Assembly (NCBI GenBank): GCA_019057865.1
Contig: JAHLWP010000009.1
Coordinates: forward strand, 1-64,000
From: Promethearchaeota archaeon
GTDB lineage: Archaea > Asgardarchaeota > Lokiarchaeia > Sigyniarchaeales > SOKP01
Reading direction: 5' to 3'
DNA: 64,000 nt
The position numbers and the translations under genes were made by a program. Position 1 is the stretch's first letter. The number at the start of each line of letters is the position of its first letter. The notes under the pieces are model-generated. The model ran no database searches. It saw only the letters and a program-made list of their open reading frames with translations, and had not been told where the DNA came from. This document shows, piece by piece, positions 3 through 28,336 of the stretch.

Positions 3-998
3 AAATGGAGAATAGATGCGAGATATGATATTTCTAAAGCAGGGGATGCGAATCTGCACTTTACAAGTCCGAATCCTGATTTACTGAGCGAAGTGGACCC
101 TGAATTAATTTCCCAGTTCCAAACATTCTATTATAAGCAAATGAAACATGTTTATGATCTACTTACGAGTAATGCATTTAACTGGTTAGTAGCTTCAGTC
201 CCAAATGATGATTGGGCGGATAAATTATTCCCGGATATTCCTCAAGATAGGCGAGAGAGCAAACTTTGGGATATAATCTTTGAGATTTGCCGTATAAATC
301 AAGAAGATCCGATTGCTGCTTGGGAAAAACACAATGATAACCTCGTTAAACGCAGTAATTATTTAAATCAAAAGCAGTATACTGCGTTAAAATTGACTGC
401 TCCTGGGACAAATTTAATGATTGGTTTGCCTAAAGACCACTATTGGGAAGGTGGGAGGGGTATTGCTCAGAATGGTATAACTTTTACAGCTAATATACCT
501 ACTGAAGAAGTCTTTACAATGCCACATAAAGATAAAGTTGAGGGGGTTGTTAGTACTACTAAGCCAGTATATTATGGAGGGTGCACAATCGAAAATTGTC
601 GTTTAAAGTTCTCTAAAGGTCGAATAGTTGAAGCTCAAGCAGAAAAGGGGGAAGAATCCATACTTAAAACACTTGAAACAGATGAGGGGGCGCGCCAATT
701 AGGAGAAATAGCCTTAGTACCACATAGTTCGCCGATCTCCCAGTCTGGGGTACTTTTTTACAGTATGTTAATCGATGAGAATGCTTCTAATCATATCGCA
801 CTAGGTCAAGCTTACAGAGATTCATTGAAAAATGGTAAAGCATTAACTGATGAAGAATTCATGGCTGCTGGAGGCAATAATAGCCTTATCCATCTTGATT
901 TTATGATCGGTTCGGGAGAAATGGATGTAGATGGAATTTTGGAAGATGAAACCGCAGAACCAATAATGCGAAATGGAGAATGGGCTTTTGATGTATGA
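3..998 (+). CDS. Aminopeptidase, M29 family (AmpS/aminopeptidase T-like); 5' end lies outside the window
   Basis: Frame is open from position 3 (KWRIDARYD...). Motifs NIPTEEVFT, LGEIAL, DENASNHIALG and HLDFMIG. Confidence 0.9.
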   Translation, partial: KWRIDARYDISKAGDANLHFTSPNPDLLSEVDPELISQFQTFYYKQMKHVYDLLTSNAFNWLVASVPNDDWADKLFPDIPQDRRESKLWDIIFEICRINQEDPIAAWEKHNDNLVKRSNYLNQKQYTALKLTAPGTNLMIGLPKDHYWEGGRGIAQNGITFTANIPTEEVFTMPHKDKVEGVVSTTKPVYYGGCTIENCRLKFSKGRIVEAQAEKGEESILKTLETDEGARQLGEIALVPHSSPISQSGVLFYSMLIDENASNHIALGQAYRDSLKNGKALTDEEFMAAGGNNSLIHLDFMIGSGEMDVDGILEDETAEPIMRNGEWAFDV

Positions 999-1107
999 TT
1001 TGATATTTATTTTTAATTCGATAATCCATTTATTAGATTGCATATTTTTTCCGGGTTTTTTGTAGATCAAACAAATGGTCTGCCAGAATGAAATGTTAAT
1101 TTTACAG
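803..1107. repeat. Junction repeat copy 1: aminopeptidase 3' end plus a fragment of the 3' end of gene 3963-4475
   Basis: Near-identical to 1922-2221 and 3864-4057. Confidence 0.9.
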
Positions 1108-1177
1108 ATGGCATATTATGATAAAGAAAAGGTGTAGCTCATTTTTCTTTGATTTGTGAAGTATCTGAGGGTATAAT

Positions 1178-1609
1178 TCAGGTAATCTTATATGACTCTA
1201 TATTTATTCCAAATTCTTGAAAATGGCGCGTGTTTCTGGTAATGATTTTATCTGCATTCAATAATTTTGCAGTCAAACCAATTATACAATCTGCTATATC
1301 AAGTAAAATTCCTTTCGCTCTTAGACTCCCTTTAAAAGCTCCAGATTCTTGGAGAATTAGAATGTTGATGGGAATTATATGAAAACCAGATAAGACTTTT
1401 TCAATTTGCTCTTTAATTTTATTATGAACGACGTTTCCCTTCTTTTCTTTAGTATATCCTAATCCATCATATAATTCAGCAATAGTAATAGCAGAAATGA
1501 ATAATGATTCTTCTTTATATTGTTTTAATAAGGTTTTTACTTGTGGTTTACCTCGCCATATGTCAATAATTACTGTAGTATCAACTAATATCATGATTAA
1601 TCTTCCCAT
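1178..1609 (-). CDS. vapC: PIN-domain toxin (VapC)
   Basis: ILVDTTVIID, ITIAEL, IADCIIG and TRNTRHF motifs. True start is probably MILVD. Confidence 0.9.
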   Translation of the reverse strand: MGRLIMILVDTTVIIDIWRGKPQVKTLLKQYKEESLFISAITIAELYDGLGYTKEKKGNVVHNKIKEQIEKVLSGFHIIPINILILQESGAFKGSLRAKGILLDIADCIIGLTAKLLNADKIITRNTRHFQEFGINIESYKIT

Positions 1610-1851
1610 AATTCAGTAAATTTTGAAGTGGATTGAAGTGCATCGTTCTTTTTTCCCTCAATGATAGCTTTTTCAAATTCACTTAAGATTTCTTCCGAAA
1701 GATTTTTGGCAATACCAAAATGTTTCAGAGGATCTTTCTGTTGATTTAATATCAACCTTTCTATTAATTCAGAGAAACTCTCGTTCAGACCTTTTAATTT
1801 CTTCAGACTTTTGTATACATCATCCCGAATTGAAATCATTTTTGAAGTCAT
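1597..1851 (-). CDS. vapB: Archaeal VapB-type antitoxin (DUF217-like)
   Basis: MTSKMISIRDDVYKSLKKLK...ESFSELIERL; abuts the PIN gene. Start re-assigned from 1944 to 1851. Confidence 0.8.
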   Translation of the reverse strand: MTSKMISIRDDVYKSLKKLKGLNESFSELIERLILNQQKDPLKHFGIAKNLSEEILSEFEKAIIEGKKNDALQSTSKFTELWED

Positions 1852-1869
1852 ATCATCAACCATAGAATA

Positions 1870-1893
1870 ATAAATATTTATATAAATATTTAT
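1870..1893. promoter_or_regulatory. Two tandem 12-bp palindromes ATAAATATTTAT, candidate TA operator
   Basis: Immediately upstream of vapB. AT-rich, so chance occurrence is not excluded. Confidence 0.4.
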
Positions 1894-1921
1894 ATCAATA
1901 GACTTATAAAATTTTTTGTTA

Positions 1922-2221
1922 AGGTCAAGCTTACAGAGATACATTGAAAAATGGTGAAGCTTTAACTGATGAAGAATTCATGCTGCTGGAGGCAATATCA
2001 GCCTTATCCATCTTGATTTTATGATTGGTTCGGGAGAAATGGATGTAGATGGAATCTTGGAAGATGATACCACAGAACCAATAATTCAAAATGGAGAATG
2101 GGCTTTTGATGTATGATTTGATCTTTATCTTTAATTCGATAATCCAATAATTAGATTGCATATTTTTTCCGGATTTTTTGTAGAGAAAACAAATGGTCTG
2201 CCAGAATGAAATGTTAATTTT
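1922..2221. repeat. Junction repeat copy 2 (degenerate, with indels)
   Basis: About 300-bp direct repeat of 803-1103. Confidence 0.9.
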
Positions 2222-2501
2222 TCATTTAATAAATATAAAAATTAGTGAAAATAAAATGAACATTAAATTTTTAATTGTTTATTAAAATTAAATTTATATG
2301 AATAAAGGAAATGAAGATTTCCAAATCTAAGAAAAGCAATCCTCAAGTGAATTAATAATTTATAAATTTTTTTTTTATAATCCCTTATTGAAATTTTCGA
2401 TTCTCACTGTTTCTACTTAGAATATAGTATGGACATTTAATAGATGTAATAAGGTTGGAATAATTGTATAAATTAAAATTAAAATTAAAGATGATGTAAA
2501 G

Positions 2502-3041
2502 ATGAGTTTAGTATGTAGCAATTGTGGAATAAAAATAGAGACTGTACCTCTACAATGCGGACAAAGTGTTACTATTAACAATGAAACCAACAAATGGGAA
2601 TGTGACATGGGAAGATGTGGAGTAATTTCGTTTGATAATTTTCTCTGTGAAAATTGTTGTATCAACAGTAGTATAATGGAAATCTTTCATGGATTTGAGC
2701 GCTTATCGGAAGAAAATCTAGAATTTCGTCAAGAATTAGATAATTTAAAAACGATTATTGTTCAGACTAAATTAGAAAATCCGGATTTTGCCTATTGGGT
2801 AGAATTTGGGAACGGCAAATTTAAATTTGGAAAAGGTGAAATAAGCGGTGCAACTATTGATATTATTTGCTCTCAAAAAGTCATGAGTGATATCCTTGCT
2901 GGAAAAAAAGTTAGTTTTCGTGAATTTTTCAAGGGTACTCTTAAAATGGAAGGAGATCTTCAATATGCTGTTGTATACTTTGATTTACTTGGGTTAGCTT
3001 CAGAAATTAATAGAGAAATTGAGGTGTTGAATAATGAATAA
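2502..3041 (+). CDS. Cys-rich N-terminus fused to an SCP2 sterol/lipid-binding domain
   Basis: CSNC...C...CDMGRC...CENCC, then SCP2-like FFKGTLKMEGDL. Confidence 0.75.
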   Translation: MSLVCSNCGIKIETVPLQCGQSVTINNETNKWECDMGRCGVISFDNFLCENCCINSSIMEIFHGFERLSEENLEFRQELDNLKTIIVQTKLENPDFAYWVEFGNGKFKFGKGEISGATIDIICSQKVMSDILAGKKVSFREFFKGTLKMEGDLQYAVVYFDLLGLASEINREIEVLNNE

Positions 3042-3786
3042 AACTTTTGTTTGGGGCCATAGGGGCTCTGGATTCATAGATATCCAAAATACTGTTGATT
3101 CATTTCACAAATCAATTGAAGTGGGAGTTGATGGCATTAAAACTGAGGCAAAATTATCTAAAGATGGCGAAATATTTTTGTGTTTTCAGCAAAGTCTAAA
3201 AAAAAATGGAGAGTATGTACCAATTAAGGATTTAGATAGTAATGAGATTAGACCCTTAAGATTAGATAATAATGAATCAATTCTAACTCTACCTGAATTT
3301 TTCAGTGAATTTCATAATTATAATATCCGCTATAATTTTGATATACGAGACCCTGAGGTTGGTATAAGAATAGTTGAAATTGCGAGAAAATTTAATTTAA
3401 TTGATAAAATTGAGATAGCGAAAACATCAATGGATTCTTTTCCACTACCTAATATCTTTTCTAAAATTAGAGAATTCGATAAAAACGTAACATTGATTAA
3501 TACTATTTTTCTAAAGCATTCTATCATTGAGAAAAAGCATCTCGAAATAGAAAGTATGAAAAAACTAAATATCCAAGGGATTAATGTGAACTATAATTTT
3601 GCTAATTTTGAATTATTTAAATTGGTAAAAGAAAATGGATTTAGATTTTATGTTTGGGGCTTACTCTTTAATAGATCAATGCAAAAATTCCTAAAGATGA
3701 ATTATAAAGGACAATCGGTAGATGCTATGATGTCAAATTTTCCTCACAGATTAGTCAAACTAAGAAACGAAATTCAAAACTACTGA
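3034..3786 (+). CDS. Glycerophosphodiester phosphodiesterase-like protein, atypical active site
   Basis: WGHRG, QNT, SKDG and MSNFP motifs; paralog of 54488-55237. Confidence 0.8.
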   Translation: MNKTFVWGHRGSGFIDIQNTVDSFHKSIEVGVDGIKTEAKLSKDGEIFLCFQQSLKKNGEYVPIKDLDSNEIRPLRLDNNESILTLPEFFSEFHNYNIRYNFDIRDPEVGIRIVEIARKFNLIDKIEIAKTSMDSFPLPNIFSKIREFDKNVTLINTIFLKHSIIEKKHLEIESMKKLNIQGINVNYNFANFELFKLVKENGFRFYVWGLLFNRSMQKFLKMNYKGQSVDAMMSNFPHRLVKLRNEIQNY

Positions 3787-3863
3787 GAAATTCTCTAACT
3801 AAAAAAATTTTTATTTATTTCCTATTTTTATTTATAAAATAATTTCTTGATAGGGATACCATG

Positions 3864-4057
3864 GGGAGAAATGGATGTAGATGGAATATTGGATGAGAAA
3901 AAAACAGAACCAATAATGCGAAATGGAGAATGGGCTTTTGATGTATGATTTGATATTTATTTTTAATTCGATAATCCATTTATTAGATTGCATATTTGTT
4001 CCGAATTTTTTGTAGAGAAAACAAATGGTCTGCCAGATTGAAAGGTTAATTTTACAG
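3864..4057. repeat. Junction repeat copy 3: aminopeptidase tail fragment running into the intact gene 3963-4475
   Basis: GGGAGAAATGGATGTAGATGG...GATGTATGA matches 914-998. Confidence 0.9.
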
Positions 4058-4475
4058 CCTCTCCGAAATCTGTGTTATAGGCCCATGAACCATCTACTCC
4101 AAATCGAATTCCTACTCCACCGTAAGTTCTAAAATTTGCTTTAGTTTTATCACAACTGGTTATTTTTTTTATGGGAATTCTTTTATGGTTAAAAATACCA
4201 TATGCTACTTCGATTTGATTACTGGTTAAGGTAATTTTTAACCCTCGGTAATTCCAATACATAAGAAAAATAAGCAAACTCACAGCACCGCATATAATCC
4301 CTATAAATGCCAATTCTATGGGTAAGAAAGCAGTAACTATAATCCCGAGAGAAGCAATTAATATACATGCAAATAACACTACAACTTTTATAAATCTTCC
4401 AGCTGGAACCCATTCTGTATATAATATTCCATTATTTTTTTGTGTATTATTTTCCTTAATTATCTCTATCACCAA
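3963..4475 (-). CDS. Two-TM membrane protein with bacterial PH-like C-terminal domain
   Basis: Two hydrophobic helices; YGGVGIR and FVFSTKN motifs. Confidence 0.65.
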   Translation of the reverse strand: MVIEIIKENNTQKNNGILYTEWVPAGRFIKVVVLFACILIASLGIIVTAFLPIELAFIGIICGAVSLLIFLMYWNYRGLKITLTSNQIEVAYGIFNHKRIPIKKITSCDKTKANFRTYGGVGIRFGVDGSWAYNTDFGEAVKLTFQSGRPFVFSTKNSEQICNLINGLSN

Positions 4476-4608
4476 ATTAATTTTGCGTTTTCAATTATTA
4501 TTCAATATAGTCATTTTCACCATTTTTAACTAGCTTTCACATTAAAAAATGTGAATAATCTTTTTTTTTTGCTCATTCTGTTCCCTCCTTCCTCTCTATA
4601 AAATTATC

Positions 4609-4896
4609 TCATAAGATTTTTTCAAAGTCATCCATAGTTAAATTAGAGGGAATACCAAGTTGAGACATCTTTAGAATGAGATCGTGCAAAGAAATTCTTG
4701 CAATTTCTGCCGCACGTTCAATGGAGATTTCCTTTATCATATATTTTTGGAGAGCAAAATTTAAACGCTCTTGCTGTAATCCTTCAATTAAGATTTTCTT
4801 TACTAATGCTGAGCGATCTAAATTTTCTTGTTCAGCAAGCTCCTCAAATTCCTTGATTAAATCTTCATCTAATCTCAAATTCATTTGTTTGGTCAT
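4609..4896 (-). CDS. RHH/UPF0175-family antitoxin
   Basis: QMNLRL...DRSALVK and ISIERAAEIA; overlaps the PIN gene stop. Confidence 0.8.
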   Translation of the reverse strand: MTKQMNLRLDEDLIKEFEELAEQENLDRSALVKKILIEGLQQERLNFALQKYMIKEISIERAAEIARISLHDLILKMSQLGIPSNLTMDDFEKIL

Positions 4897-5420
4897 TTAA
4901 TTTCCTCCGTTGAGTTATTTATATTATTTTTAATAATTTCTTTTGCTTTTTTATAGAAGAATTTTACAACTTCTGGTTTTAATGCTTTAATAAGAGCAAG
5001 CTCCTCGAATGATTTTGTAAAGTTCTCATAATCAATAACAGATTTTTTAAGAAGATCTAATAAAATTACTTCAGAAGTTTTAGGTTTTAAACCTATACTT
5101 AAAGCTAGATTTAAAGCTTTATGATCATCAGTTACAGGAACACCATCATCTTTTAGGCATATTTCTATGGTATCTTTTTCGCCTTTTCCTAAATTTTTAG
5201 TTGTAAAAAAATTCTTTAATTTATAACTACTTTCCCTGATTTTCTTTTTTTCAATATTTCTATTCAATATCTTAGCATCTTCAAATTGGTCAATTTCTTC
5301 TACTAATTCATTTTTTATAGTTTGACTAACAATAACTTCTCCTAATTTAGTAAGTTTTTCCTTTAAGTTAATTTTAGTCAAATATATTAGTGAACAAGCA
5401 TCAAAAACAAATTTTGTCAT
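4893..5420 (-). CDS. PIN-domain protein (DUF3368-like)
   Basis: VFDACSLI, LGKGEKDTI and TDDHKA motifs. Confidence 0.8.
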   Translation of the reverse strand: MTKFVFDACSLIYLTKINLKEKLTKLGEVIVSQTIKNELVEEIDQFEDAKILNRNIEKKKIRESSYKLKNFFTTKNLGKGEKDTIEICLKDDGVPVTDDHKALNLALSIGLKPKTSEVILLDLLKKSVIDYENFTKSFEELALIKALKPEVVKFFYKKAKEIIKNNINNSTEEIK

Positions 5421-5633
5421 TAATTTAAATGTAGCATCGCTAGCATTTATATCTTTTTGTTATCATTTCATAGTATTCCTTTTCTTTTTTCTGATTGAAA
5501 GATCGTCAAGAACTCTTGGAAAAAATGTAACTAATAATAATATAACTGTTGAAATTAGCGGAAAGAAAGTAAGAATTATCTTATCGAACTAACTGGTAAA
5601 TTTTTTTTACTGTATACTGTATAAAAAGAAACA

Positions 5634-6230
5634 TTAAAATTTTATCTTTTTTAACCTCTTTAATGTAGTATTTAGCCCTAATTCTTTAATTTTTCTTTCT
5701 AAAAAAGTTAAATCTATTTTTTCTTTATTTACATGAAATAATGTTAAGAAATCAATAGCATCTTGATATTCAAGTAATTCAGAATCTGGGACATCTTCTA
5801 TATTTCCTAAATATAAGATTTTACCTATCAAGACGTATTCTAAAGGTGCAATTAATAGATCTTTACTAAGAATTTTTACGTGCACTGCGTTAGTTAAAAC
5901 CTCAATTTCTCTCTGTTCTTCGGCAAATTTAATATCTAATCTTAAATAGCTTTTTTTGTCAAATACACTAATATGTGTTTTTTCTCGGTATCCTTTATAA
6001 AATTGGTCTTTCATTACATCAAATTCAAATGCTTTTAATAAATCAATTAGCTGCGGGATTTTAGAGGCATCATTCTCAATAATTAGATCAATATCTTGGG
6101 TAGTTCTAACATGACCATAATGGATTAAAGCAATTCCACCAACAATAACATATTTGATACGAATTTTTTCAAATATTTTTTCTAATCGAGATAAAATATC
6201 ATCTAATTCTGCTATGAAAATACACTCCAC
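5634..6230 (-). CDS. Nucleotidyltransferase (AbiEii/DUF6036-like)
   Basis: YVIVGGIA...RTTQDIDL motif. Confidence 0.75.
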   Translation of the reverse strand: MECIFIAELDDILSRLEKIFEKIRIKYVIVGGIALIHYGHVRTTQDIDLIIENDASKIPQLIDLLKAFEFDVMKDQFYKGYREKTHISVFDKKSYLRLDIKFAEEQREIEVLTNAVHVKILSKDLLIAPLEYVLIGKILYLGNIEDVPDSELLEYQDAIDFLTLFHVNKEKIDLTFLERKIKELGLNTTLKRLKKIKF

Positions 6231-6508
6231 TTTTTGGCTTTTTTTAGCTTAGTAGATATTATTAAACTTGCTTTGACTTTATCCTTTACTTCTTCTATAT
6301 TCATAAGTGGAAATCTATTAAGGATTCCATCCTCTAGTAAATTAAAAGTATTATGAATAAATAAATCCGCGATTTCAAGCGGCTCTTTTTTCGTATTTAA
6401 CAATCTAAGCGCGGCTTCAATATTTTTCCGTAATTTTTCTTTTCTTATTAATAAAAGACTTTTTTGAGATATAGATGTTAATTTGCTTTTGATTGTCTTC
6501 GAGTCCAT
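6212..6508 (-). CDS. Hypothetical partner of the nucleotidyltransferase (putative antitoxin)
   Basis: 98 aa; overlaps the downstream gene; AGGTGA..AGATAAT precedes the start on the minus strand only weakly, so the call rests on position. Confidence 0.55.
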   Translation of the reverse strand: MDSKTIKSKLTSISQKSLLLIRKEKLRKNIEAALRLLNTKKEPLEIADLFIHNTFNLLEDGILNRFPLMNIEEVKDKVKASLIISTKLKKAKKWSVFS

Positions 6509-6868
6509 TGTATTATCTACTTAGGTGAAAATTTAATTAATATCTAATTATTATTATAATTCTTATTCTAAATATTTGATTGGTCACAGATAATTTTCAA
6601 GTAATTAATTTCAAATAATAATCTCTATATGGCCTTCATGATGAATGATGGTATTACTGTGGTCTTTATATTGCTTTAAATTTTTTGATTTTCAAATAAT
6701 GATTTTCGTGATTGGGATGAAATTCGCAGTTTCGCGGAAAGATTTGCTGAAAAACTCTAATATTATGGGTAATGGATAAAATGACGATAGATAAAGATAA
6801 GTTAAAACTAAATAATAATAGGTTAAATTCAATAATACTTTAAATTAGATTTTAGTCTAAAAGTCATT

Positions 6869-6978
6869 TTAAAATTGATAATTCATGTATTAGATTGCAT
6901 ATTTTTTGTGGATTTCTTGTAGAGAAAACAAATGGTCTGCCATGTTGAAAGGTTAACTTTACAGCCTCTCCGAAATCT
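6869..6978. repeat. Junction repeat copy 4: 3' fragment of gene 3963-4475
   Basis: TATTAGATTGCAT...GTAGAGAAAACAAATGGTCTGCC...ACAGCCTCTCCGAAATCT matches 3963-4071. Confidence 0.85.
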
Positions 6979-11333: not shown

Positions 11334-11634
11334 TTACCACTATAATTAACTTCTGACTTCAGTAATTTTGATAGAATAACTAAACTAATCTGGAAAGAAC
11401 TTTTAAAACTTTTTAATAAAAGTTAAAGAAGATCAATTGATGTATAATCAGCTTGGATAGATTTTGATATACCAAAAAAACCAGGTTTATGGATAAGTTA
11501 TATTATTAGTGGATTAGTAAGTAATTAAATGACATATTAAATTTATTTGAGATTACTCACAAAGGAGATTATTCGAGCTATTAATGAATCACATTCTGAA
11601 GATGTTTACCATATTGCAATTGCTATAATCAATT

Positions 11635-12410: not shown

Positions 12411-12447
12411 TAGAGGTTTGAAAATTAATTGTTTGATTTGAGTTTTC

Positions 12448-16775: not shown

Positions 16776-16786
16776 ATTATCCACCT

Positions 16787-18380: not shown

Positions 18381-18633
18381 AAATTTAGAGGATTTCTAAT
18401 TCTGGACAATGGCAGGTTTATAATCTATAATGGGCGCTATTTTAGAGAGAATTTCTTTGCAAATTGTATAAGTATCAAAATGCAATTTATTTTTCAATTA
18501 AATTCTTGAAAGTTTTATTAATATTAAATAAACGATTTGTATTATTTATCTTAAATATAAAATTCGAAATCTTTAAAGAAAAATAAATGATCTAATTATT
18601 TTTAGTAAAAATTGAGAAAAAAGGTGGTTTAAA

Positions 18634-19479: not shown

Positions 19480-19576
19480 TAAATATTTGTAAATGTTCAA
19501 CACAATTTCGCGAACTTTTTTTATATATTACATTCTGCTCATTTTCTTTAAAAAAAATAATATTTTTTTATAAAAA

Positions 19577-20845
19577 TTAGTAATATGTATCAGGAATAGA
19601 TGGTTTTTTTGGAAATAGAATTTTGATCAATTTTTCTGATCCTGGTTTCAAAATTGAATCTTTGAGAATATATTTAATTTCTTCAAAAGTTTTATCTGAA
19701 AGAAGTAATTTTATTAAAGTTGAGTTAGGTATTTTAACATCGCAACTTCCTGGGATAGGATATCCTTTTTTTACCTCAATATCTTCAACTTTCCCATTTT
19801 TGAATCTTAAAGTAAAGATCTCTCTATAATCACTAATTACAATATCTTGAGATAATCCTTTATATGAAGATCTTTCTATTCTTTGTTCTAATACCGGACT
19901 AATAGCATGCAAAAATTCTTTGATATTTGGGATTCTGATTTGCCAGCCGTAACCTAAATCTCTCTTTCCTCCTATTGAGCAAATATATTGTGCAAATTTT
20001 GTATCAGAATTTACGTGAAAGACAATTTGATCCTTTTCCTCATTAAGGGTTTTAACGCATTGTAAAATCTTAATCATACTTTCTTCATTGACTTCCGGAA
20101 CTATAAGTGAAAAAGCAACATTATCATAAGACATGCCAATAGAAAAATAAGAAATTGGCTTTCCTTTTATCTTGATAAGAAATGTACTTAAAAAATTATC
20201 GTCAAAATCATCATTCATGAACTTATACATAAAATTATCTGAATTAAATCTGTTGGTTACAAAAAATCTTTCTTGTTCTTTATTATAAATCGATTTAATG
20301 AAAGCTAAGTCTTGTTTTGCAGCTTTTTGAAAAGAAATCATTTCAAGTTTTCTTGAAGGGACTTGACTTTTATTTAATAATATGCGTTCATCAAGATTTA
20401 AAGCAAATTCATATCCAAATCTTCGATAATAATAGGGAATCCCTCTAATTACAGAAAGGAGGTATCCTTCTTGTCTCATGATGTTCTCATATAATTTATT
20501 CATAATTCCCATAAGCCCTCTATTTCTATATTCAGGTAGAGTACCTACAAGCCCCATTTCACATATAGGGATTGGTATTCCATTAAAATTCCATTCTAAT
20601 GGCATTAGTGTAATAGAAGAAACTATTTTATTGGAATCCTTTTTTTCTATATAAATCCAATAGATTTCGTCTCTCTTGGGATGTTGCAAATATAAGCGAC
20701 TTATATATTTTTTTAAGGATTCTTCTTGATGCACAGTTACATTAAATGAAAGAAGCCTTTCTAATTCATCTGTATCATCAATAGCTACTCGTAAGGTCAA
20801 ATTATTTCCAATTATTTTAGAATATCCTTTTTGTATCATCATCAA
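19577..20845 (-). CDS. GNAT acetyltransferase (Eis-like architecture)
   Basis: VGTLPEYRNRGL and YYRRFGYE; SCP2-like tail. Confidence 0.8.
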   Translation of the reverse strand: MMMIQKGYSKIIGNNLTLRVAIDDTDELERLLSFNVTVHQEESLKKYISRLYLQHPKRDEIYWIYIEKKDSNKIVSSITLMPLEWNFNGIPIPICEMGLVGTLPEYRNRGLMGIMNKLYENIMRQEGYLLSVIRGIPYYYRRFGYEFALNLDERILLNKSQVPSRKLEMISFQKAAKQDLAFIKSIYNKEQERFFVTNRFNSDNFMYKFMNDDFDDNFLSTFLIKIKGKPISYFSIGMSYDNVAFSLIVPEVNEESMIKILQCVKTLNEEKDQIVFHVNSDTKFAQYICSIGGKRDLGYGWQIRIPNIKEFLHAISPVLEQRIERSSYKGLSQDIVISDYREIFTLRFKNGKVEDIEVKKGYPIPGSCDVKIPNSTLIKLLLSDKTFEEIKYILKDSILKPGSEKLIKILFPKKPSIPDTYY

Positions 20846-21026
20846 CTTTTAAATAATAAAAATTTTCATTGAATAAGCAAATTTAAACCATATTAAAAAA
20901 TTTGTTTGATAACTATGAAAGAAAATTCTACAATTAAGCCATCTATAACCTGTCCATTAAAACCAAAATTTCATTTTTTAGCGCTCTTAAATTGGAATAT
21001 TTAAAAACTGAATAATTTAAGGTTTT

Positions 21027-21059
21027 AAAAATGGACTCCTAATGTCTTATATTATCTCA
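21027..21059. repeat. Second copy of the 33-bp repeat
   Basis: Matches 12449-12481 with one mismatch. Confidence 0.8.
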
Positions 21060-21095
21060 AACCAACTTTAAATATAAAATCAATGTCATTGAAAA

Positions 21096-21920
21096 ATGCT
21101 AGCTGACAAACCCATTAAATCAATCATTATTTTAATAGTTACAAATTTAGCTATAGTTGTTGCTGCAGCTTTTATATCTTTATTAATTCCATCTATCGAT
21201 CAAAATGTTGACCAGATCATACAAATCATTGTTACTTTTATGTTTTGGTGCTCATTAGTGTTTTTAATTGTCCCATTTGTTTATAAACTCCCAAAAAAAT
21301 GCGATACTTTTCGAGTTTATTTAGATGGGATTCATTTAACTAATTATCGCCCTTTTTCAAGGATACTATTGTATACTGTTAGCTGTTATTTTATTTTTGT
21401 TATCTTTCAACTTATTGGATCTTTAATATATGGTCAATACAGTTTCGATACTTCTCGAATATTGCCTCCTGAATCATATTGGCTACTAAATATTAACGCT
21501 GGACTATTTGAGGAAATAATGTTTCGAGGGATCATATTAACTCTATTATTGGCAGCCATTTCTGAAAAAAAATCCTTAATTATTTCCGCAGTTCTTTTTG
21601 GAGTAGTACATTATGCAAATCTGCTTCATGAGTTTAATTATGAACATCTTATTTTTACAACGGCTCAAGTTATTTGGGCAATCGGTATGGGACTACTCTG
21701 GGGATATTTAGTCATAAAAACAAATTCCCTCATACCAGGTATAATTTTACATTATTTAAGTAATGCTCTTGATTCCTTATGGCTTTTTGTACCAAACTCA
21801 TCAATCGAAATAAAACTCTTATATATGTTATTATTTGGAAAATTTATCCCTATCATCTTGTCAATGTTTTGGATAAAATTCATTTCTAATTCTGGAAAAA
21901 GAACTTCTAAAGTGTATTAA
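21096..21920 (+). CDS. CPBP/Abi (CAAX) intramembrane metalloprotease
   Basis: EEIMFRG, FGVVH and HYLSN motifs. Confidence 0.9.
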   Translation: MLADKPIKSIIILIVTNLAIVVAAAFISLLIPSIDQNVDQIIQIIVTFMFWCSLVFLIVPFVYKLPKKCDTFRVYLDGIHLTNYRPFSRILLYTVSCYFIFVIFQLIGSLIYGQYSFDTSRILPPESYWLLNINAGLFEEIMFRGIILTLLLAAISEKKSLIISAVLFGVVHYANLLHEFNYEHLIFTTAQVIWAIGMGLLWGYLVIKTNSLIPGIILHYLSNALDSLWLFVPNSSIEIKLLYMLLFGKFIPIILSMFWIKFISNSGKRTSKVY

Positions 21921-21923
21921 ACA

Positions 21924-24155
21924 TTAAATCCTAAAATAGATTGTTTTTGGAGTAGTTCTTACACAAATTGATTTACTTAAGTCAATTGCAGTTGTCCATA
22001 TATCTTCATCCCAGGTTTTTTCACTTTCTGCAATTTTTAATAACTTTTTTATAGCTTTTATTGTATTTGCGCAGGTTATCTGTTTATTTGTTTTAGATTT
22101 TTCACTTATATAATTCTGAACGCTATTTTTTACTTGTTCTAGCCCAATTTCAATGGGGGATCGTTGTGTAATTGGAGTTATCTTGAATAATTGTGCTTCC
22201 GAGCTATATTCATGCACTGGGGGTTGAATAAATTCAGTTATTTTTGTTTCTGGTGAAGGAATCGTAATTTCAGTGAGTTTAGATAGCTCTTTTAATTTAC
22301 TTCTAATTGTAATAGGGGATAAATTGAGTTTATTTAGAATAAATTCAACATCTTGAAGGGGAGGTTCGATTCTAAAAATATTTTCATAATGTACCATTAA
22401 TGAGATATAAGCTAATTCAAGATCATTTAATTTACTTATTCTACCTAAATGTGGATATAGTTCATTTGGAAGACTGTATCTATGCCGTATGTCTAATTCA
22501 ACATTAGTTATCCAAATGACATAATCTAAGGCTTTCTCTCTTAACAAATCAAATGTTTTATTAATATCTCCTTTTGAAACTTCTTTTCCTTTCCGATACA
22601 TCTTAACTTCTATTCCGACCTTCTTTATATATTCAGAACCTTCATTTCCAAAAAATTCTAAAAAAACATCAGGCTTTTTCTTTGATTCTCCTAAGGGAGG
22701 CTCATGTTTCACATCTGTTAAGTAATTGTAATCAGGTTGAGTGCTTAAAATTTCAAAGAATTTGCATAAAACATTCTCAACCATTGTGGATCGCTGTTTA
22801 TCTTGAATATGACTATCTAAAAGCTTATTCCTAAGTTCTTTTTGTTCGATATAAGAAAGAGTTAAATCATCCCTAGTTCTAAAAGCCCTGAAAGCTTTAA
22901 AGAAAGTATCAACAAGTTCTAGTTCTTTAGTTTTCCTATAACTCTCTATTAATTCATATAGATTTTTTAATGTCTTTCTTAAATCTTGCCCATTATTTTC
23001 ATAAAGATATTTAATACTGTTTTCTCCAAATGGGAATAAGATCTTATCATGTGGAGGACTAAAATTGAATTTATTCCAGAAGTTCAGGATGTATTGAGTT
23101 ATTACCATAATAACAGTATCAGGATCTAAATTAGTAAGGGCGAGAGTTTTTGACCAATAATCTAATTGTTGACGTTGGTCGCCTTGTAGTACATCATCAA
23201 AGTCACTATAAGCGTCTAAAGTGCCTGAAAGAATAATGGTCATAAATTTCTTTTGTCGCAAATTTAAAAGTAATGAAAACAAATTGGAAAATACTTTGTC
23301 TTTTAATCCTGACCCTCCTGCTTCTAAATGGTCAAAAATTACAACAAAACAAGTCTTATTATCAAATGTCCATCTAAACATCTCAATTAATTCGTCAATG
23401 TATTTTGATGCATCATTATCAGTGCTCACATTGAAACCTTTGTATGCATCATTTCCTCTAAAGGCGTTGAGACTTTCCATATATTCTGGATTCTGAACAT
23501 AAGACTTCCAAAAAGTTAATAAGAAGTTTAAATCAACAGGTATAAATCGGTTTAATATCGCTGCGTTTTCGTTGACTAAATCGAAAATTTTCTGATTAAA
23601 ACGAGCATTCTGAGTTTTTTCTTTAATATAATCAAGATTAGAAGTTAATTTTAAAACATCCTCTCCAGAAAACTTATGTAATAATTGCTCTTCAAGTTTA
23701 CCTCCTTTTTCAGTAATGAGTTTTATAACTTTACTAATCGTGCTCATGAGTAGCAAATCTAAAAATTCTACCTTTTCCAATCTTGAAACAATTTGACGGT
23801 AAAATGATTTCATCTTAAAATCTTCAGGTTGCCCACTCGTTTCGAGATATACAATAGGGAGGAGAAATTCTTTACTCAACTCATCTACAGAGTAGCAAAT
23901 TAAGGTAGATTTTCCAATCCCTTGCTTTCCAATTACTCGAAGTAATTTTGGCTCAAAATATTTAATACTATCTTTTATTTCTTCAGATATCTCTTTTATA
24001 TAATCATCTCGGCCAAAACAAAAGAGAGGAGGATTATTATAAAAGTTTATGGCAATTGGAGGTTTTGGAAAGGGATTTAGATTTTCTCTATTAATAATTT
24101 CAGTTTTACACTTCTTTAACCAATCTTTTTGAGTTTTATATCCATCCAATTGCAT
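21924..24155 (-). CDS. AAA+-type P-loop ATPase fused to a putative PD-(D/E)XK nuclease domain
   Basis: GKQGIGKS (Walker A), VVIFDHLE (Walker B), DLRKTL (sensor-2-like) and KKPDVF...GIEVK. Confidence 0.7.
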   Translation of the reverse strand: MQLDGYKTQKDWLKKCKTEIINRENLNPFPKPPIAINFYNNPPLFCFGRDDYIKEISEEIKDSIKYFEPKLLRVIGKQGIGKSTLICYSVDELSKEFLLPIVYLETSGQPEDFKMKSFYRQIVSRLEKVEFLDLLLMSTISKVIKLITEKGGKLEEQLLHKFSGEDVLKLTSNLDYIKEKTQNARFNQKIFDLVNENAAILNRFIPVDLNFLLTFWKSYVQNPEYMESLNAFRGNDAYKGFNVSTDNDASKYIDELIEMFRWTFDNKTCFVVIFDHLEAGGSGLKDKVFSNLFSLLLNLRQKKFMTIILSGTLDAYSDFDDVLQGDQRQQLDYWSKTLALTNLDPDTVIMVITQYILNFWNKFNFSPPHDKILFPFGENSIKYLYENNGQDLRKTLKNLYELIESYRKTKELELVDTFFKAFRAFRTRDDLTLSYIEQKELRNKLLDSHIQDKQRSTMVENVLCKFFEILSTQPDYNYLTDVKHEPPLGESKKKPDVFLEFFGNEGSEYIKKVGIEVKMYRKGKEVSKGDINKTFDLLREKALDYVIWITNVELDIRHRYSLPNELYPHLGRISKLNDLELAYISLMVHYENIFRIEPPLQDVEFILNKLNLSPITIRSKLKELSKLTEITIPSPETKITEFIQPPVHEYSSEAQLFKITPITQRSPIEIGLEQVKNSVQNYISEKSKTNKQITCANTIKAIKKLLKIAESEKTWDEDIWTTAIDLSKSICVRTTPKTIYFRI

Positions 24156-24162
24156 AATTTCT

Positions 24163-24705
24163 TTAAATTTTCTTTAATTTAAACCATACATAAGTTTGAC
24201 CATCTTTAACCAAAGGTTCACCTTGAACTATTTTACCAGGCTGTAAATCAACCTTATACTCCATAAACAACTTATACAGCTCATTATGTATTCTTTCTCT
24301 AGACCATGGGATAAAATCTTTGATTTTTTGAGTAAGAGCTGAAATAGAAACAAAATCACCAAATCTTTTTTCAAGAGAGTTATAGGCAGTATTAATTGTT
24401 CTAATAAATTGCTGTTTAGTTATATCTTGAAATTTTTCTTCAGGTTCTGTCTTAAAAACTACATTTTCTAGTTTTGATAGCCTTATTTCAAAATCTTGAA
24501 ATTTATTTAATATTAATTCTAAATCCGAAATTGCACTACTAGATGTAGTAGTTTGGGTTATACTAGTTTTTTTAATTCCTTTTCCTTTTTTTCTCCGTTG
24601 AATTTCCCATTTTCTGAAGTTTGCAGTGATTTTATCTCTCCATATAGCATTCTTTCCAGTTTCTGCTTCAAATTGTAGCATTAATTCTGTCTTTTTAATA
24701 GTCAT
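24163..24705 (-). CDS. Hypothetical protein: NAIW motif, coiled coil, possible winged-helix C-terminus
   Basis: FEAETGKNAIWRDKITANFRKW; ends 7 bp before the ATPase start. Confidence 0.7.
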   Translation of the reverse strand: MTIKKTELMLQFEAETGKNAIWRDKITANFRKWEIQRRKKGKGIKKTSITQTTTSSSAISDLELILNKFQDFEIRLSKLENVVFKTEPEEKFQDITKQQFIRTINTAYNSLEKRFGDFVSISALTQKIKDFIPWSRERIHNELYKLFMEYKVDLQPGKIVQGEPLVKDGQTYVWFKLKKI

Positions 24706-25154
24706 AAGTGGGACAATTTTTTGTTTTATCTAACGATTTCTAAATAAAATACCTATTAAAAAATATTTAAATTTACTTCTTTTTTGATTTGCCTTGAAAT
24801 CGTGGATTGTTACGATTTAATTGATTTGCCCGATTATCTCTCCCTGCTTTATAAGCAGGATTATTTTTATTTTTAACTATTGACCTATTATCATTAGGAG
24901 CTCAATCTCATAGATTTAAACAAGAACCTAAAAATATTAAAAGTAATTTTATAATATCTGAAGAAAATATTTTAAAAGATTATCAATTGAATGGAAATCG
25001 TTTGAAAACATTATTTTAAAGTTTAAAATTGAAGATAGATGAGATAAAAGTTTTTTGAAACTTAAACTAAAGAGTTTATCGCGTAAAGAAAAGGTAAAAA
25101 CAAAAGTTGAAGAAGAAAAAGAATATTGGAAATTAATAAAGAATATTTAAAAAT

Positions 25155-26879
25155 TTATATTTTAAAATTAACTCTTATAAATTCATCAGGATAATTAAGC
25201 GCATTGAAAAATAAGGGCGTTCCAGAAAAAAATAACGGTGAGAGTGGACCAATAGTCATAAAAGGATACTCTCGTTTTCCTAAACCACTTTGCGGATCTT
25301 TAAAGTTTTGATATAACCTTATTGCTTCTCTATTACCTCCTATAATTTCCTGGAGGGCGCGCAATTCATTACCCCAACCAAGACCAAACCCAAATGTAAA
25401 GACTCTTATTTGATTGATAATTTCATGATGGATACTTGAAAGCGTCTGACTAATAAACATCCATCCAAGGCCGTATTTTCGAGTGGTTCTAATAGCATCA
25501 ATAAAGGTTGTTCTTATTCTTTTGATATTTTCATTTTCTATTCTTCCTCTCGGTGCTAACCTATGCGCCTCGTCAACTACTACTAAAGAGTTTATGTTGC
25601 CTCCTTGTTTAAATTTATTTTCTGTCTGTATCGTAATTTTACTAAGAAATTGTTGTATTGCAATTAATTGAATATCTTCATTCCACAAGATATTCGTAGG
25701 TTTTTCTCTTGATGATAAATCTATTATAACTAAAGGATTTCCTTCTGATGCTTTTTCAAATAAAGTTGTTAATCTCACACTGTCTTTAGCTCTTTTATAG
25801 CTAAATAAATTTGTAATTCCTGCCCATAAATCATACATACTGTCTTCATTTAATGAAAGCCATACACTCTTGACTCTTTCTCTCGGCTCTTTAGTAAAAA
25901 TTACCCTCTGTAAAAACTGTTCATCAGGGATTAAACTCCATACTATTTTAAATGCATCTCTTCTGTAATATTCCCAAGGTTTAAATCCATTAAATATTTG
26001 GGTTTTAGTATTAAGAATTCTAATAATTTCATCTACAAAACGAGGCCAATGTTCTTCATAATAGATTTTTAATCTATTAAAGAATCCTGAGGCAATTAAT
26101 AGATCTTTGAATAAACTGTCGGAATAATCAAGCACTAAATTTTGTATTGTATAGATTTTAATTTTTCTACCTATTTCTTTCTCAATTATTTGTTTTAATT
26201 TTTCATTAGAAGAAAACTCAAGAGAGAATTCACCTTGAGGATCCAAAATAAAAATCGACATATTTTTATGTTTTGCATAACCACTCACCATCATTTTAGC
26301 TAGAACAGATTTACCAGAACCTGTTTTACCAAAAATACCAATGTGATAAGCTTCACCAATACCATCCTTTCCAATGTCGAAATGTTTAAACCACATTGGA
26401 AGTTTTATGTTTGAACCATAAGCTTTCCCTAAGTAAAATAACTCTTCTTGGTAATCATCTAATAAATCCTCCATTATTTCTTCATCAAATAATTTAATGG
26501 AAGTTCCTGTTGGTGGTACTGTACCTAGTATGCTAGGAACAAGATGTTGATCGTTGTTAGCAAAAACAGAACTCACCATCATTTTAGCAATATGAAGATC
26601 TTGCCTTTCTGTGATTGGGTCAACTCGGCCTTTTTGTCTAATAATACCTCTCATAGTTGGGTCTTTAGCTCAAATATTTCGCATCACGATTTCAGATATT
26701 TGTCCTAAAGCATAATGGGCCATTCCATCTTGCATAAAATTAAAAATGCTTAACTTACCTACTAATTTTTTATTAACCGCAGTTCCAATTATATCAATCG
26801 TTAATTCTCCTGTCGAAGAGGGAGAACCAATTACTCCTATTCTTTCTGCCTTGTCAATTTTCTCATTAACATTACTAAT
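25155..26879 (-). pseudogene. herA: HerA-family ATPase with one in-frame TGA at 26670-26672
   Basis: GKTGSGKS, DPQGEF, VVVDEAH and RKYG motifs. N-terminal IGVIGSPSS...LGQISEI...NI*AKDPTM is in the same frame. Confidence 0.8.
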
Positions 26880-26890
26880 TTTTAATCACC

Positions 26891-28027
26891 TCATTTCCCC
26901 CAATCAGTACGATATCCATGTAAGGTAAAATAAATATTCCCTTCTTCTCCTTTCCAATTTAAAGTCATATCTTGAGTTGCTGTTCTTCTAATCGCTGGTA
27001 AGGCTTTTCTTAGATGTTTAACCATTCTATCTGCGAAATATAATGGATAAGGTTCTATAATCCCTGGAACACCACATTGTAATTTTATAGATTCAAATAA
27101 CATTGCTAACCTATAATTATTCGTTGCTATTGAAGGAGCAATTTCCACTCTTAATACTGGAAAAAATTCAGATGGTCTATAGTAAACCATATTAATCTCA
27201 TTTAATGCATTTATGATCCTTTTGAATTGTTCTATTGTATCAGATGGCAAGTAATCTAGGCTCCATTTTGATATTGGTTTTTCAATTTTCATCGGCCCTA
27301 CAAATTCACCTGCTTTTAATATGAATGAAAGTAACCCACGATCTTCAAATCCATCCAAATTCAAAATATTTTGTGATATTTGATTTATAGTAGTATATTT
27401 AGGTACACCAGTGAATATTTGGTCAGATTTTTTAGAAATAAGTATTTTTTCATACGATTTCAATGCCGGATTTAATAATTCAAATAGTACATTGATTAGT
27501 TCCTTTACAGGGGTGATATTAGGATTTAAAGCTTTAATAATATTAATAAAATGTGACATTAACGAACCATCGATAAATACTACATCGTGAGGTGCATTTC
27601 CCGCCAGAATCAATTCCATACACATCATTATTGCTCTTGAAATCATAGTAGTAGTATCATTATGGGGTAGAGTTAGAACGTTAGAGTTATGATATGGTGC
27701 TGACCAATATCTAACTTCAGTTGGAGGTGCTAATCCTTCAACCGCTACACCAGCAATACCAACTATATCTGTAGAGAGTAATTTCTCTACAGCAAAAGCT
27801 CCATCTACACCACAAGTTGTTGGATGAGATGGCGTTAATGTAATTTCAGAATCTTTTCTTAGTAAATTTTTATCTTTTAATGTATTTCTCGCTTGTTTTT
27901 TAAGATTTAATAATTTTTGAAAGGTAATTGACAATTTTCTACTTATTCCATCACATTGAATTAACATATCCTCAACTAAAGCCTCAGGTAATTCTTTAAA
28001 AGGAGTTTTTAAAATACTTCTCGACAT
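26891..28027 (-). CDS. nurA: NurA-family nuclease
   Basis: GVDGA, FIDGS, GVPK and EPYPLYFAD motifs; directly upstream of herA. Confidence 0.8.
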   Translation of the reverse strand: MSRSILKTPFKELPEALVEDMLIQCDGISRKLSITFQKLLNLKKQARNTLKDKNLLRKDSEITLTPSHPTTCGVDGAFAVEKLLSTDIVGIAGVAVEGLAPPTEVRYWSAPYHNSNVLTLPHNDTTTMISRAIMMCMELILAGNAPHDVVFIDGSLMSHFINIIKALNPNITPVKELINVLFELLNPALKSYEKILISKKSDQIFTGVPKYTTINQISQNILNLDGFEDRGLLSFILKAGEFVGPMKIEKPISKWSLDYLPSDTIEQFKRIINALNEINMVYYRPSEFFPVLRVEIAPSIATNNYRLAMLFESIKLQCGVPGIIEPYPLYFADRMVKHLRKALPAIRRTATQDMTLNWKGEEGNIYFTLHGYRTDWGK

Positions 28028-28280
28028 TAAATAAATCTCAACTCATTGAATTTTATCTTAAAATTTCTTAAATATATTGTACATTTAGGTAAAAATAAAT
28101 GTTATTAAATTTAGACTGAAACAGATGAAAATAATTATTTTCAAAAGATTAATAATTAGAATTTAATCAAAAAGGGGTATATTATATGAATATTAAATTC
28201 AAGCTGTTTTTCATCAATAATAAGCTATCTAATATTTGTTATTGAATCTCTTAAAGTAAGATTATTAATTTGCTCATTCG

Positions 28281-28336
28281 TTTATAAGATTGCAAATTTT
28301 TTGCGGATTTCTTGTAGAGAAGACGAAAGGTCTGCC
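28281..28336. repeat. Junction repeat copy 5 (diverged 3' fragment of gene 3963-4475)
   Basis: Minus strand reads GRPFVFSTRNPQKICNLIN versus GRPFVFSTKNSEQICNLIN. Confidence 0.75.

Follow-up and report, generated by a model that had tools for sequence, protein, structure and literature searches.

The start of a 132-kb contig (C5) from a metagenome-assembled Promethearchaeota genome (G000) raises the question of how small gene blocks came to lie between an aminopeptidase gene and its neighbor, where pieces of the junction between the two genes recur and no integrase is in view. The original prediction for this DNA described an integron-like array, in which five copies of one junction bracketed four discrete cargo blocks that had been added by repeated integration or homology-anchored capture. 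The window analyzed here, that is, the whole stretch of 64,000 nt, was compared with related genomes and metagenome loci. Most likely, the small gene blocks were added between the aminopeptidase gene and its neighbor by ordinary homologous recombination. The junction is probably one site of gene gain by insertion with long target duplication, a kind of insertion that is known in bacteria and hardly described in archaea.

Gene X and the copies of its 3' end

The first gene of the window, pepS (3–998, plus strand), encodes an M29 aminopeptidase (Pfam PF02073, E 2.5e-130) with 93% identity to its ortholog in the closest relative, G012, which shows 93–96% nucleotide identity. The contig start truncates pepS at its 5' end, but the gene has an intact 3' end. 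The neighboring gene, X (3963–4475, minus strand), is intact and encodes a protein of 170 aa with two transmembrane helices and a PH-like domain, for which Pfam returned only weak matches to bPH_4 and DUF6560. At least 241 homologs of approximately 169 aa were found, under the source names Promethearchaeota or "YdbT-like", and X was present in half of the genomes of the genus (18/36). The 3' end is the most conserved part of the gene. A constant partner gene was considered for X and rejected, as its 59 immediate neighbors were heterogeneous, with Roc/Ras GTPases being the commonest (6/59). X is a multi-copy gene that recurs in variable toxin–antitoxin and defense regions.

A 25-nt core, TTGTAGAGAAAACAAATGGTCTGCC, was found at 1060, 2178, 4010, 6917, and 28312 with 2, 0, 0, 0, and 3 mismatches, respectively. 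All five occurrences were on the plus strand, while none was expected by chance (100 shuffles); thus, the five predicted copies of the X 3' end in one orientation were recovered. The three mismatches of copy 5 are all synonymous, and its peptide GRPFVFST is kept despite the base changes, as had been stated. The core, however, is no more than the coding motif that is best conserved across the X family. The repeats around the cores form three families, namely, 803–1106 and 1922–2224 (93% identity), 914–1107 and 3864–4057 (194 nt, 93% identity), and 6866–6978 and 28261–28373 (113 nt), and the inner repeat pairs measure 304 nt and 193 nt. The pepS part of the repeat is restricted to the array at the junction. 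X 3' relics are additionally found at 6866 and 28261 and on two further contigs of the same genome, C85 and C81; they occur at several places outside the array because X itself is multi-copy.

Copies 1 to 3 also bear a pepS end or relic, in agreement with the prediction. Junction copy 1 (803–1107) runs from the 3' end of pepS across a 14-nt spacer into X relic 1 (1013–1107, minus strand), which has 31 codons with an in-frame stop. It is followed by cassette A (1108–1921, minus strand), in which VapC (1178–1609) and VapB (1597 to approximately 1863) were assigned by the Pfam families PIN and VAPB_antitox. Copy 2 (1922–2224), which is the inner and older one, consists of a pepS relic of 195 nt (1922–2116) and an X relic (2131–2224), and corresponds to positions 264–567 of the empty junction. 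Cassette B (2225–3863, plus strand) encodes a Zn-ribbon–SCP2 protein (2502–3041) and a GDPD protein (3034–3786), both assigned by Pfam. Copy 3 (3864–4057) starts with a pepS relic of 85 nt (3864–3948), which the spacer separates from the 3' end of intact X. Upstream of X, two toxin–antitoxin-like pairs occupy 4609–6508 on the minus strand: an RHH/UPF0175 gene (4609–4896) with a PIN-like PDC-S70 protein (4893–5420), and a DUF6036/AbiEii-like nucleotidyltransferase (5634–6230) with a partner ORF (6212–6508). The DNA of the PIN-like/RHH pair is 96% identical to a metagenome locus (L103).

Copies 4 and 5 are decayed 3' ends of other X alleles. Copy 4 (6812–6978, minus strand) is a free-standing relic with the last 37 codons of another X allele and approximately 54 nt of its own 3' flank, a flank common to the full-length X genes of approximately ten other genomes. 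Copy 5 (28261–28336, minus strand), a relic upstream of a NurA–HerA block, retains the final 20 codons from a consensus-type X allele, and in metagenome locus L125 a full-length X takes this position beside a 90%-identical NurA. By synteny, the region 11607–21888 consists of backbone segments shared with G012, namely, HepT/MNT (11607–12378), 17675–18375, and GNAT with a CAAX protease (19567–21888), interleaved with extra insertions. The sequence that separates copies 4 and 5 is therefore mosaic, and a single 21-kb cargo block was ruled out. One of its insertions, an MNT/HepT pair at 12314–13482, is itself flanked by a local duplication of 113 nt (12314–12426 and 13370–13482, 85% identity). Consequently, the claim that five copies bracket four discrete blocks was not supported, as copies 4 and 5 stand free within backbone genes and separate insertions or substitutions. 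They probably represent a separate layer, in which X relics were co-inherited with neighboring blocks.

The empty site and the reciprocal copies

In G012, the site is empty, and pepS and X are convergent and 14 nt apart. Both flanks of the window insert overlap there on one 194-nt segment of contig C77, which is present as a single copy without an insert. In the window, 2.76 kb (1108–3863) carrying VapBC, the inner junction copy, and SCP2–GDPD lie between two copies of this segment. Across the genus, the pepS/X junction was empty in G012 and G013 and held differing cargo in two genomes (G002 and G068) and two metagenome loci (L115 and L137); the variable cargo anticipated at the aminopeptidase junction of relatives was thereby found. 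The cargo itself is also present elsewhere. The order VapB, VapC, and full-length X was present in three metagenome loci (L106, L111, and L104), and the cassette A block was 79% identical to copies in G064, G005, and G027. The SCP2–GDPD pair was not found in G012 or G030, but at least 27 further genomes of the genus have it, at loci that shift between genomes, with the best match in G019 (87%). In five other genomes, no relevant direct repeats flanked this pair.

The two outer copies of the segment are complementary. Copy 1 combines a whole pepS with a truncated X, and copy 3 a truncated pepS with a whole X. Between them, 14 mismatches were counted, all of them within the initial 41 nt or the final 60 nt (P ~0.007 and ~0.025 for the two relic parts), while the central 93 nt (955–1047, identical to 3905–3997) had none. 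The mismatches of copy 2 were evenly spread. Copy 1 is resident-like, that is, G012-like, up to approximately 1047 and follows a different X allele past that point, whereas copy 3 is divergent in its first 41 nt and G012-like in the remainder. By this pattern, copies 1 and 3 are reciprocal chimeras on either side of the 93 identical nucleotides. Such chimerism is what marks a single-crossover (Campbell-type) insertion, and the identical stretch would be the crossover zone.

The alleles were also compared. Over 136 nt (3955–4090), the 3' end of the resident X shows 100% identity to G012. The X relics of copies 1 and 2 share four states other than the resident ones and differ from the resident allele at 7 positions in approximately 100 nt. 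The genus-consensus STRNPQKICNLINELSN is found in copies 4 and 5 and in the C85 relic, while the resident X has STKNSEQICNLINGLSN. The relic alleles are thus unlike the resident allele, as the prediction of different alleles required. All three pepS pieces carry GEMD and not GEMN, a state that only G006 has among the other alleles of the comparison, and the pepS relic of copy 2 is nearest to copy 1 (94%), on a tree that did not resolve its position. Because GEMD is common to all three pieces and copy 2 is nearest to copy 1, the foreign origin of the pepS parts is not proven.

The following course of events would account for the array. Incoming DNA, probably circular, would have carried cargo together with its own copy of the junction, comprising the 3' ends of both convergent genes. 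One homologous recombination event between the incoming and the chromosomal junction, in the form of a single crossover, would leave the shared segment on both sides of the cargo, as direct repeats. On the left, a whole pepS would then be followed by a truncated X, and on the right, a truncated pepS by a whole X, so that neither gene would be damaged. The 2.76-kb insert would have arrived already holding copy 2 between VapBC and SCP2–GDPD, and as this older copy lies inside the insert, at least two rounds would be recorded. Recombination between the flanking repeats could release the cargo as a circle that might insert into the corresponding junction of a related cell. In this scheme, we infer that the intermediate was circular and that the host's own recombination machinery acted on it, as well as how the DNA was transferred. 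The additive, homology-anchored insertion at a convergent junction that had been proposed was supported by the empty sister site, direct repeats in Campbell topology, chimeric copies, relics of other alleles, and the lack of a nearby integrase.

The single-crossover model does not account for how a circle with a junction copy would first have formed.

The same signature was found at unrelated loci of this genome. On contig C75, a 145-nt duplication surrounds a 1.4-kb insert at a site that is empty in G012 and G030, and on contig C3, an 85-nt duplication surrounds a 0.74-kb insert at a site that is empty in G030. At both loci, the two repeat copies carry lineage-specific states, are 95–99% alike, and look resident. 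No clean empty site was found for three other repeat-flanked loci (C42, C20, and C27). At a further locus, C60, the same duplication is present in G012, and the event is therefore older. Because unrelated loci show the same signature, the insertion process is not specific to the pepS/X junction.

Recombinases, attachment sites, and rival explanations

Pfam searches of all ORFs in 1–30 kb revealed no integrase or transposase in or beside the insert, and no tyrosine recombinase (PF00589) was found on C5, C81, or C85, which confirmed that no integrase was in view. Elsewhere in the genome, where a search for a tyrosine or serine recombinase had been suggested, three intact tyrosine recombinases were found on other contigs, and no serine recombinase (PF00239) was found in the whole genome. 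No recombinase was found on the X-array contigs of five other genomes, in approximately 160 fetched loci searched around X by tblastn (a weak test), or among the families shown for the 59 immediate neighbors of X. The repeat had no significant fold (DNA folding z-scores from +0.3 to −1.9), and no inverted repeat, hairpin, or palindrome was present in 900–1125, the imperfect palindrome of approximately 28 bp that marks dif-like sites (Xer/dif modules, IMEX, and pdif) included. The duplicated segments of C75, C3, and the window had no motif in common beyond chance. Three other candidates were rejected. A tRNA or other RNA as the target was dismissed since the window has no tRNA and 1–30 kb has no Rfam family; a virus or plasmid using X or the core as its attachment site was dismissed since a viral contig collection gave no match to either; and retro-insertion was dismissed since no A/T tract was visible at the VapC-side boundary of cassette A.

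The X relics are approximately 42, 64, 76, 76, 100–103, and 117 nt long. Those in copies 1 and 2 stop at the same codon (KLTF). Only a few nucleotides from this codon lie the breaks of relics in three other genomes (G005, G027, and G064) and of an internal X piece in G074. This shared breakpoint could point to a specific cutting site. The blocks would then be satellites without an integrase, moved by a site-specific recombinase encoded elsewhere, with a core in the X 3' end (around KLTF/GRPFVFST) and with each element bringing a replacement gene end, as at tRNA genes. The common right boundary of copies 1 and 2, together with the three intact tyrosine recombinases, would suit such elements, and there are known islands in which successive integrations have scattered partial tRNAs (10.1101/2020.12.28.424599). 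We nevertheless consider this explanation unlikely. The relic lengths vary, no recombinase was found near the X arrays searched, the viral contigs lack both X and the core, and no common motif links the unrelated loci that bear this signature. Moreover, the distribution of mismatches puts the exchange within the 93-nt zone and not at KLTF, and a common KLTF boundary can descend from one older relic.

The repeats could also have arisen in place, with no homologous incoming copy, if foreign DNA had been pasted between resident copies during the repair of a widely staggered break or during template switching in replication. The lineage-specific and closely similar copies at C75 and C3 and the GEMD state of all three pepS pieces are compatible with this, as are the variable duplication lengths (85–525 nt). 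Against it stand the mismatches between copies 1 and 3, which are reciprocal and clustered at the ends, and the X relic of copies 1 and 2, which differs at 7 of approximately 100 nt from a resident allele that is itself identical to that of G012. In addition, VapBC beside an X 3' end mirrors the gene order with full-length X in other populations, which implies that the relic travelled with its cargo. Accordingly, duplication in place was judged to be quite improbable at this junction.

It is very improbable that the contig is an assembly chimera, in which several coexisting strains with different junction cargo were threaded together: despite a contamination of 5.15%, a 55-mer shared between the start of C5 and C85, an overlap of the C85 end with C81, the absence of the first 90 codons of pepS from the bin with a graph branch inside pepS at the contig start, and an exact 93-nt repeat of copies 1 and 3 that exceeds k = 55, the joints between relics and cargo link non-homologous sequences, which k-mer threading cannot create, exact matches within the other copy pairs do not exceed 35 nt, and similar relic arrays occur in other assemblies (G068, G005, G064, and G027). 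Even under a mixture of strains, duplicated pieces of the junction would flank every cargo unit.

Significance and comparison with known systems

Asgard archaea have large, poorly syntenic genomes with few recognized mobile elements. Single-crossover insertion at the pepS/X junction would offer a concrete and testable route by which their accessory genes are gained without an enzyme of a mobile element. The spare gene ends would serve as a readable scar, usable to date and count acquisitions, and gene-end relics in such genomes should be checked for this signature before they are called attachment sites or assembly errors. A broader proposal is offered as possible but doubtful: cassettes addressed by homology and free of recombinases, as circles of cargo plus a gene-end copy, may be routine in gene gain and shuffling in Loki-type Asgard archaea. 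The conserved 3' third of X might then act as a portable landing pad that punctuates toxin–antitoxin and defense islands, a functional analogue of attC operating on host homologous recombination alone.

The array resembles an integron in being a linear series of small cassettes parted by a recurring sequence. Integron cassettes are mostly promoterless, point the same way, and are transcribed from one common promoter. However, IntI, attI, and folded attC sites are missing here, the recurring sequence is coding DNA, and the cassettes have their own spacing and lie on both strands, with VapBC on the minus and SCP2–GDPD on the plus strand. The integron-like character that had been proposed was thus not supported.

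Arrays formed by C-terminal displacement in Rhs, CDI, and T6SS effector–immunity systems arise through homology-facilitated illegitimate recombination (PMC5361080). They likewise contain orphaned 3' gene fragments beside small cassettes and homology-anchored insertions without an integrase. However, those systems combine a constant 5' part with a variable toxic 3' part and immunity genes, whereas X is most strongly conserved at its 3' end, and an effector–immunity logic was not seen. Tycheposon islands grow by tandem accretion at integration hotspots and contain partial tRNAs (10.1101/2020.12.28.424599). In such hotspots, as in decayed integrative elements at gene 3' ends, later insertions push older ones inward and partial ends of the target gene are scattered, which is similar to the present array. 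Those elements use tyrosine recombinases and a fixed attachment core; here, no recombinase was found, a fixed core is improbable, and the targets are ends of protein-coding genes.

The Campbell integration of a non-replicating circle, as in insertion–duplication mutagenesis, has the same topology, the same reciprocal chimerism, and the same reversibility through its repeats. It is a laboratory concept, and no natural source is known here for circles that share 190–300 nt with the junction.

The closest known process is insertion with long target duplication, and not the integron. This kind of insertion was reportedly described by Nobusato et al. in 2000. It has been documented for bacterial restriction–modification genes in a survey without an archaeal case (Furuta, Abe and Kobayashi 2010, PMC2853133). 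In both settings, the insert lacks a mobility gene and lies between long direct repeats that vary in length (tens to ~400 bp in the bacterial cases), the repeats align to a single copy in an insert-free relative and often overlap gene 3' ends, and the cargo is selfish or defensive. At the pepS/X junction, the repeats are longer than ~30 bp (194 nt) and single-copy in G012, with no integrase or transposase in or beside the insert. The present case differs in its Asgard host, in its cargo of toxin–antitoxin and lipid-related pairs, in the duplication of two convergent gene ends with nested events, and in a crossover mosaic that points to homologous recombination. It would thus extend insertion with long target duplication beyond bacterial restriction–modification genes to archaea and to other cargo, and its crossover mosaic supports homologous recombination as the mechanism.

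Organization of the repeated pepS/X junction

The repeated unit was the junction between two convergent genes, namely, pepS (3-998, + strand), which encodes an M29 aminopeptidase, and X (3963-4475, - strand), which encodes a 170-aa protein with two transmembrane helices and a PH-like domain. As originally predicted, a 25-nt core near the 3' end of X occurred five times in the window, always on the + strand, while chance would give none. The extents of the copies were placed on the scale of the empty pepS/X junction of G012, the closest relative. Copy 1 entered from the left and ended at scale position 568, copy 2 covered 264-567, copy 3 ran from 375 into the intact X, and copies 4 and 5 covered 470-582 and 470-545, respectively. 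Therefore, copies 1-3 included the pepS end, as had been proposed, and copies 4 and 5 consisted solely of X 3' ends. Copy 5 had three mismatches in its core, all synonymous, which agreed with the claim that it keeps the peptide GRPFVFST despite base changes. This core-encoded motif was the most conserved across the whole X family, and its coding would be enough to explain the conservation of the core without any DNA-level function.

The genome, G000, is a metagenome-assembled genome of 4.26 Mb in 87 contigs, with a completeness of 99.7%, a contamination of 5.15% and a GC content of ~29%; the window makes up the first 64 kb of contig C5, which is 132 kb long. The locus and the relatives' loci carried genes for Roadblock/LC7 proteins, for Ras-family GTPases and for a BAR-like FAM92 protein, and X homologs were labeled Promethearchaeota in their source records. 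These features place the organism among the Loki-type Asgard archaea. At 29100-30953, three Roadblock/LC7-type genes were absent from G012, in which the homolog of the sequence from 30953 on directly follows the zinc-ribbon gene.

Insertion between pepS and X

G012 and the window shared 93-96% nucleotide identity, and in G012 the convergent pepS and X were separated by 14 nt. The window flanks 3-1107 and 3864-4485 mapped to G012 with a 194-nt overlap, so the window carries a 2,756-nt insert (1108-3863) flanked on each side by one copy of a 194-nt target, both in the same orientation. Moreover, pepS adjoined X in G013. The original prediction had proposed looking for variable cargo at the same junction in related genomes, and this was found: none was present in G012, and different cargo separated the genes in G002 (2.2 kb, holding a Ras GTPase and a hydrolase, with no detectable duplication), in G068 (9.4 kb) and in the metagenome loci L115 and L137 (1.7 and 3.5 kb, respectively). 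These empty or differing intervals indicate that the junction is a genuine hotspot of variation.

The insert held two cassettes. Cassette A (1108-1921) was a VapBC pair. In the metagenome loci L106, L111 and L104, the order was VapB-VapC-full-length X, and in the window X relic 1 comes after VapB-VapC, which implies that this truncated gene end travelled with the cargo. Cassette B (2225-3863) consisted of a Zn-ribbon-SCP2 gene and a GDPD gene that overlap. This pair was not found in G012 or G030; at least 27 further genomes of the genus had it, at shifting positions, and the best match reached 87%. In locus L050 (G077:C18), from a different species, a ~90-nt segment right after GDPD (2974-3061) was repeated 1.19 kb on (4160-4245; 30 nt exact), which may represent another small duplication-flanked insertion.

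Copy 1 comprised whole pepS followed by truncated X, and copy 3 truncated pepS followed by whole X. Judging from the sequence, this topology is what one crossover between the chromosome and a putative circle would produce: a circle bearing a homologous junction segment would recombine once with the chromosome and leave the insert between two copies. Copies 1 and 3 differed by 14 mismatches, all within 41 nt of the start or 60 nt of the end, and the intervening 93 nt were identical. Copy 1 was G012-like in its left part and different in its right part; copy 3 was different in its left part and G012-like in its right part (3955-4090, 100% identical to G012). The opposite G012-like halves and the identical 93 nt indicate that the two copies are reciprocal chimeras, with the exchange point in the 93-nt zone. 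In-place decay of the relic parts, taken as the null model, would spread the mismatches evenly, and for the observed clustering P was ~0.007 in one relic part and ~0.025 in the other (copies 1 and 3).

In the case of copy 2, which lies inside the insert, the differences from copies 1 and 3 were evenly spread. It is a junction copy of greater age, and an earlier round was thus already on record in the DNA that came in. All three pepS pieces shared the GEMD state, which among the compared alleles occurred elsewhere only in G006, and copy 2 was nearest to copy 1 on a poorly resolved tree. These observations indicate that the pepS parts came from a closely related donor or from within the lineage.

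Both copy 1 and copy 2 had an X relic that ended at the same codon (KLTF), and the X relics in G005, G027 and G064 stopped only a few nt away. In L091 (G074:C241), an internal X piece (5397-5477, residues 119-145) ended at this KLTF codon, at which relics 1 and 2 of the window begin; it lay just upstream of SCP2-GDPD, in the opposite orientation, and the sequence at its end, AAAATTAACCTTT, was nearly palindromic around TTAA. This common boundary may go back to a single ancestral relic, or mark a site that is fragile or prone to recombination.

X copies beyond the junction

The ~21 kb between copies 4 and 5 had been described as a discrete block of toxin-antitoxin and defence cargo. A single unit was rejected, because backbone segments shared with G012 ran through the stretch in the same order, namely, HepT/MNT (11607-12378), 17675-18375, and GNAT with a CAAX protease (19567-21888); between them lay insertions or substitutions absent from G012. 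At 21924-28027, an AAA ATPase (743 aa), a 180-aa ORF, a HerA-like ATPase and a NurA-like nuclease, with a PADLOC model match for HerA only, replaced two different G012 genes.

Copy 4 retained ~54 nt of the 3' flank found at full-length X genes in about ten other genomes. At the position of copy 5, the metagenome locus L125 had a full X, with a NurA-HerA block of 90% identity beside it (an 88%-identical NurA-HerA stretch follows the full X). Copies 4 and 5, as well as a relic on contig C85, ended in the genus-consensus STRNPQKICNLINELSN, versus STKNSEQICNLINGLSN in the resident gene, in line with the earlier view that the copies are fragments of different alleles. Copies 4 and 5 are decayed remains of other X genes. 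Beside copy 5 lay a zinc-ribbon ORF 3' relic (28390-28480, - strand, ending ...CGKKVL*), and in G012, 36 nt of this relic lay between X and HepT.

Some genomes have more than one copy of X, and variable regions of several populations are punctuated by it. Contig C84 of G068 (13134-79404, L078-L081) had two full and two partial X copies in one orientation over 66 kb around pepS, and the metagenome contig L122 had two full copies 4.4 kb apart. In several genomes (L122:5497-8868, L136, L083, L091, L042), X adjoined, usually convergently, a ~1,125-aa Roc/Ras-domain protein, and Ras-family genes were its commonest immediate neighbors (6 of 59).

In the assembly graph, a branch led from the first 55 nt of C5 towards C85 and C81. 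C5 and C85 (L046) began with the same 55 nt, after which C85 departed from pepS at about codon 109, and the end of C85 overlapped that of C81 (L047). C85 carried an X 3' relic (862-925), an X 5' fragment (4253-4450, residues 5-70), a lipocalin gene and two inverted toxin-antitoxin-like pairs, and C81 carried a further X relic (5261-5342). Codons 1-90 of pepS were absent from the bin. The branched start represents either strain variants or one more duplication of the 5' part of pepS that has been collapsed.

Recombination machinery, similar insertions and known systems

The absence of an integrase in view was corroborated, as no tyrosine recombinase was found on C5, nor on C81 or C85. As for recombinases elsewhere in the genome, tyrosine recombinases were located on C87, C82, C79 and C27, and no serine recombinase was found in G000. 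The X-array contigs of G068, G005, G064, G027 and G074 had no recombinase, and neither X nor the core was found in the viral contig collection. The repeat showed no significant single-strand fold, inverted repeat or Rfam match.

G000 was compared with itself for local direct repeats of 60-330 nt with an identity of 84% or more and a spacing of 0.4-8 kb, and 32 pairs were obtained, with C75 and C3 giving a clean empty-site comparison. On C75 (40247-41949), a 145-nt duplication of a sugar-kinase-like gene 5' end surrounded 1.4 kb, and the site was empty and single-copy in G012 and G030. On C3 (79921-80828), an 85-nt duplication of a dehydrogenase-like gene 3' end, at a convergent junction, surrounded 0.74 kb; this site was empty in G030 and held a different 1.5-kb insert in G012. 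The duplicated segments of C75, C3 and the pepS/X junction had no common motif beyond chance, which argues against one site-specific enzyme. The window also contained 113-nt repeats around an MNT/HepT pair and a 525-nt HepT/MNT duplication (11776-12300 and 16007-16531, with a 300-nt exact stretch). The latter surrounded 3.7 kb with a second MNT/HepT pair and an InhA-like MAM-domain protein, and its right copy truncated HepT.

The signature at pepS/X is that of 'insertion with long target duplication', which is known from bacterial restriction-modification genes and for which no archaeal cases were recovered in the survey (PMC2853133). Homology-facilitated illegitimate recombination with C-terminal displacement arrays (PMC5361080) and accretion islands that contain partial tRNAs (10.1101/2020.12.28.424599) are related ideas. 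In the Asgard mobile-element literature searched, integrase-borne elements are described at tRNA genes or short AT-rich sites, and the pepS/X type of insertion is unlike these.
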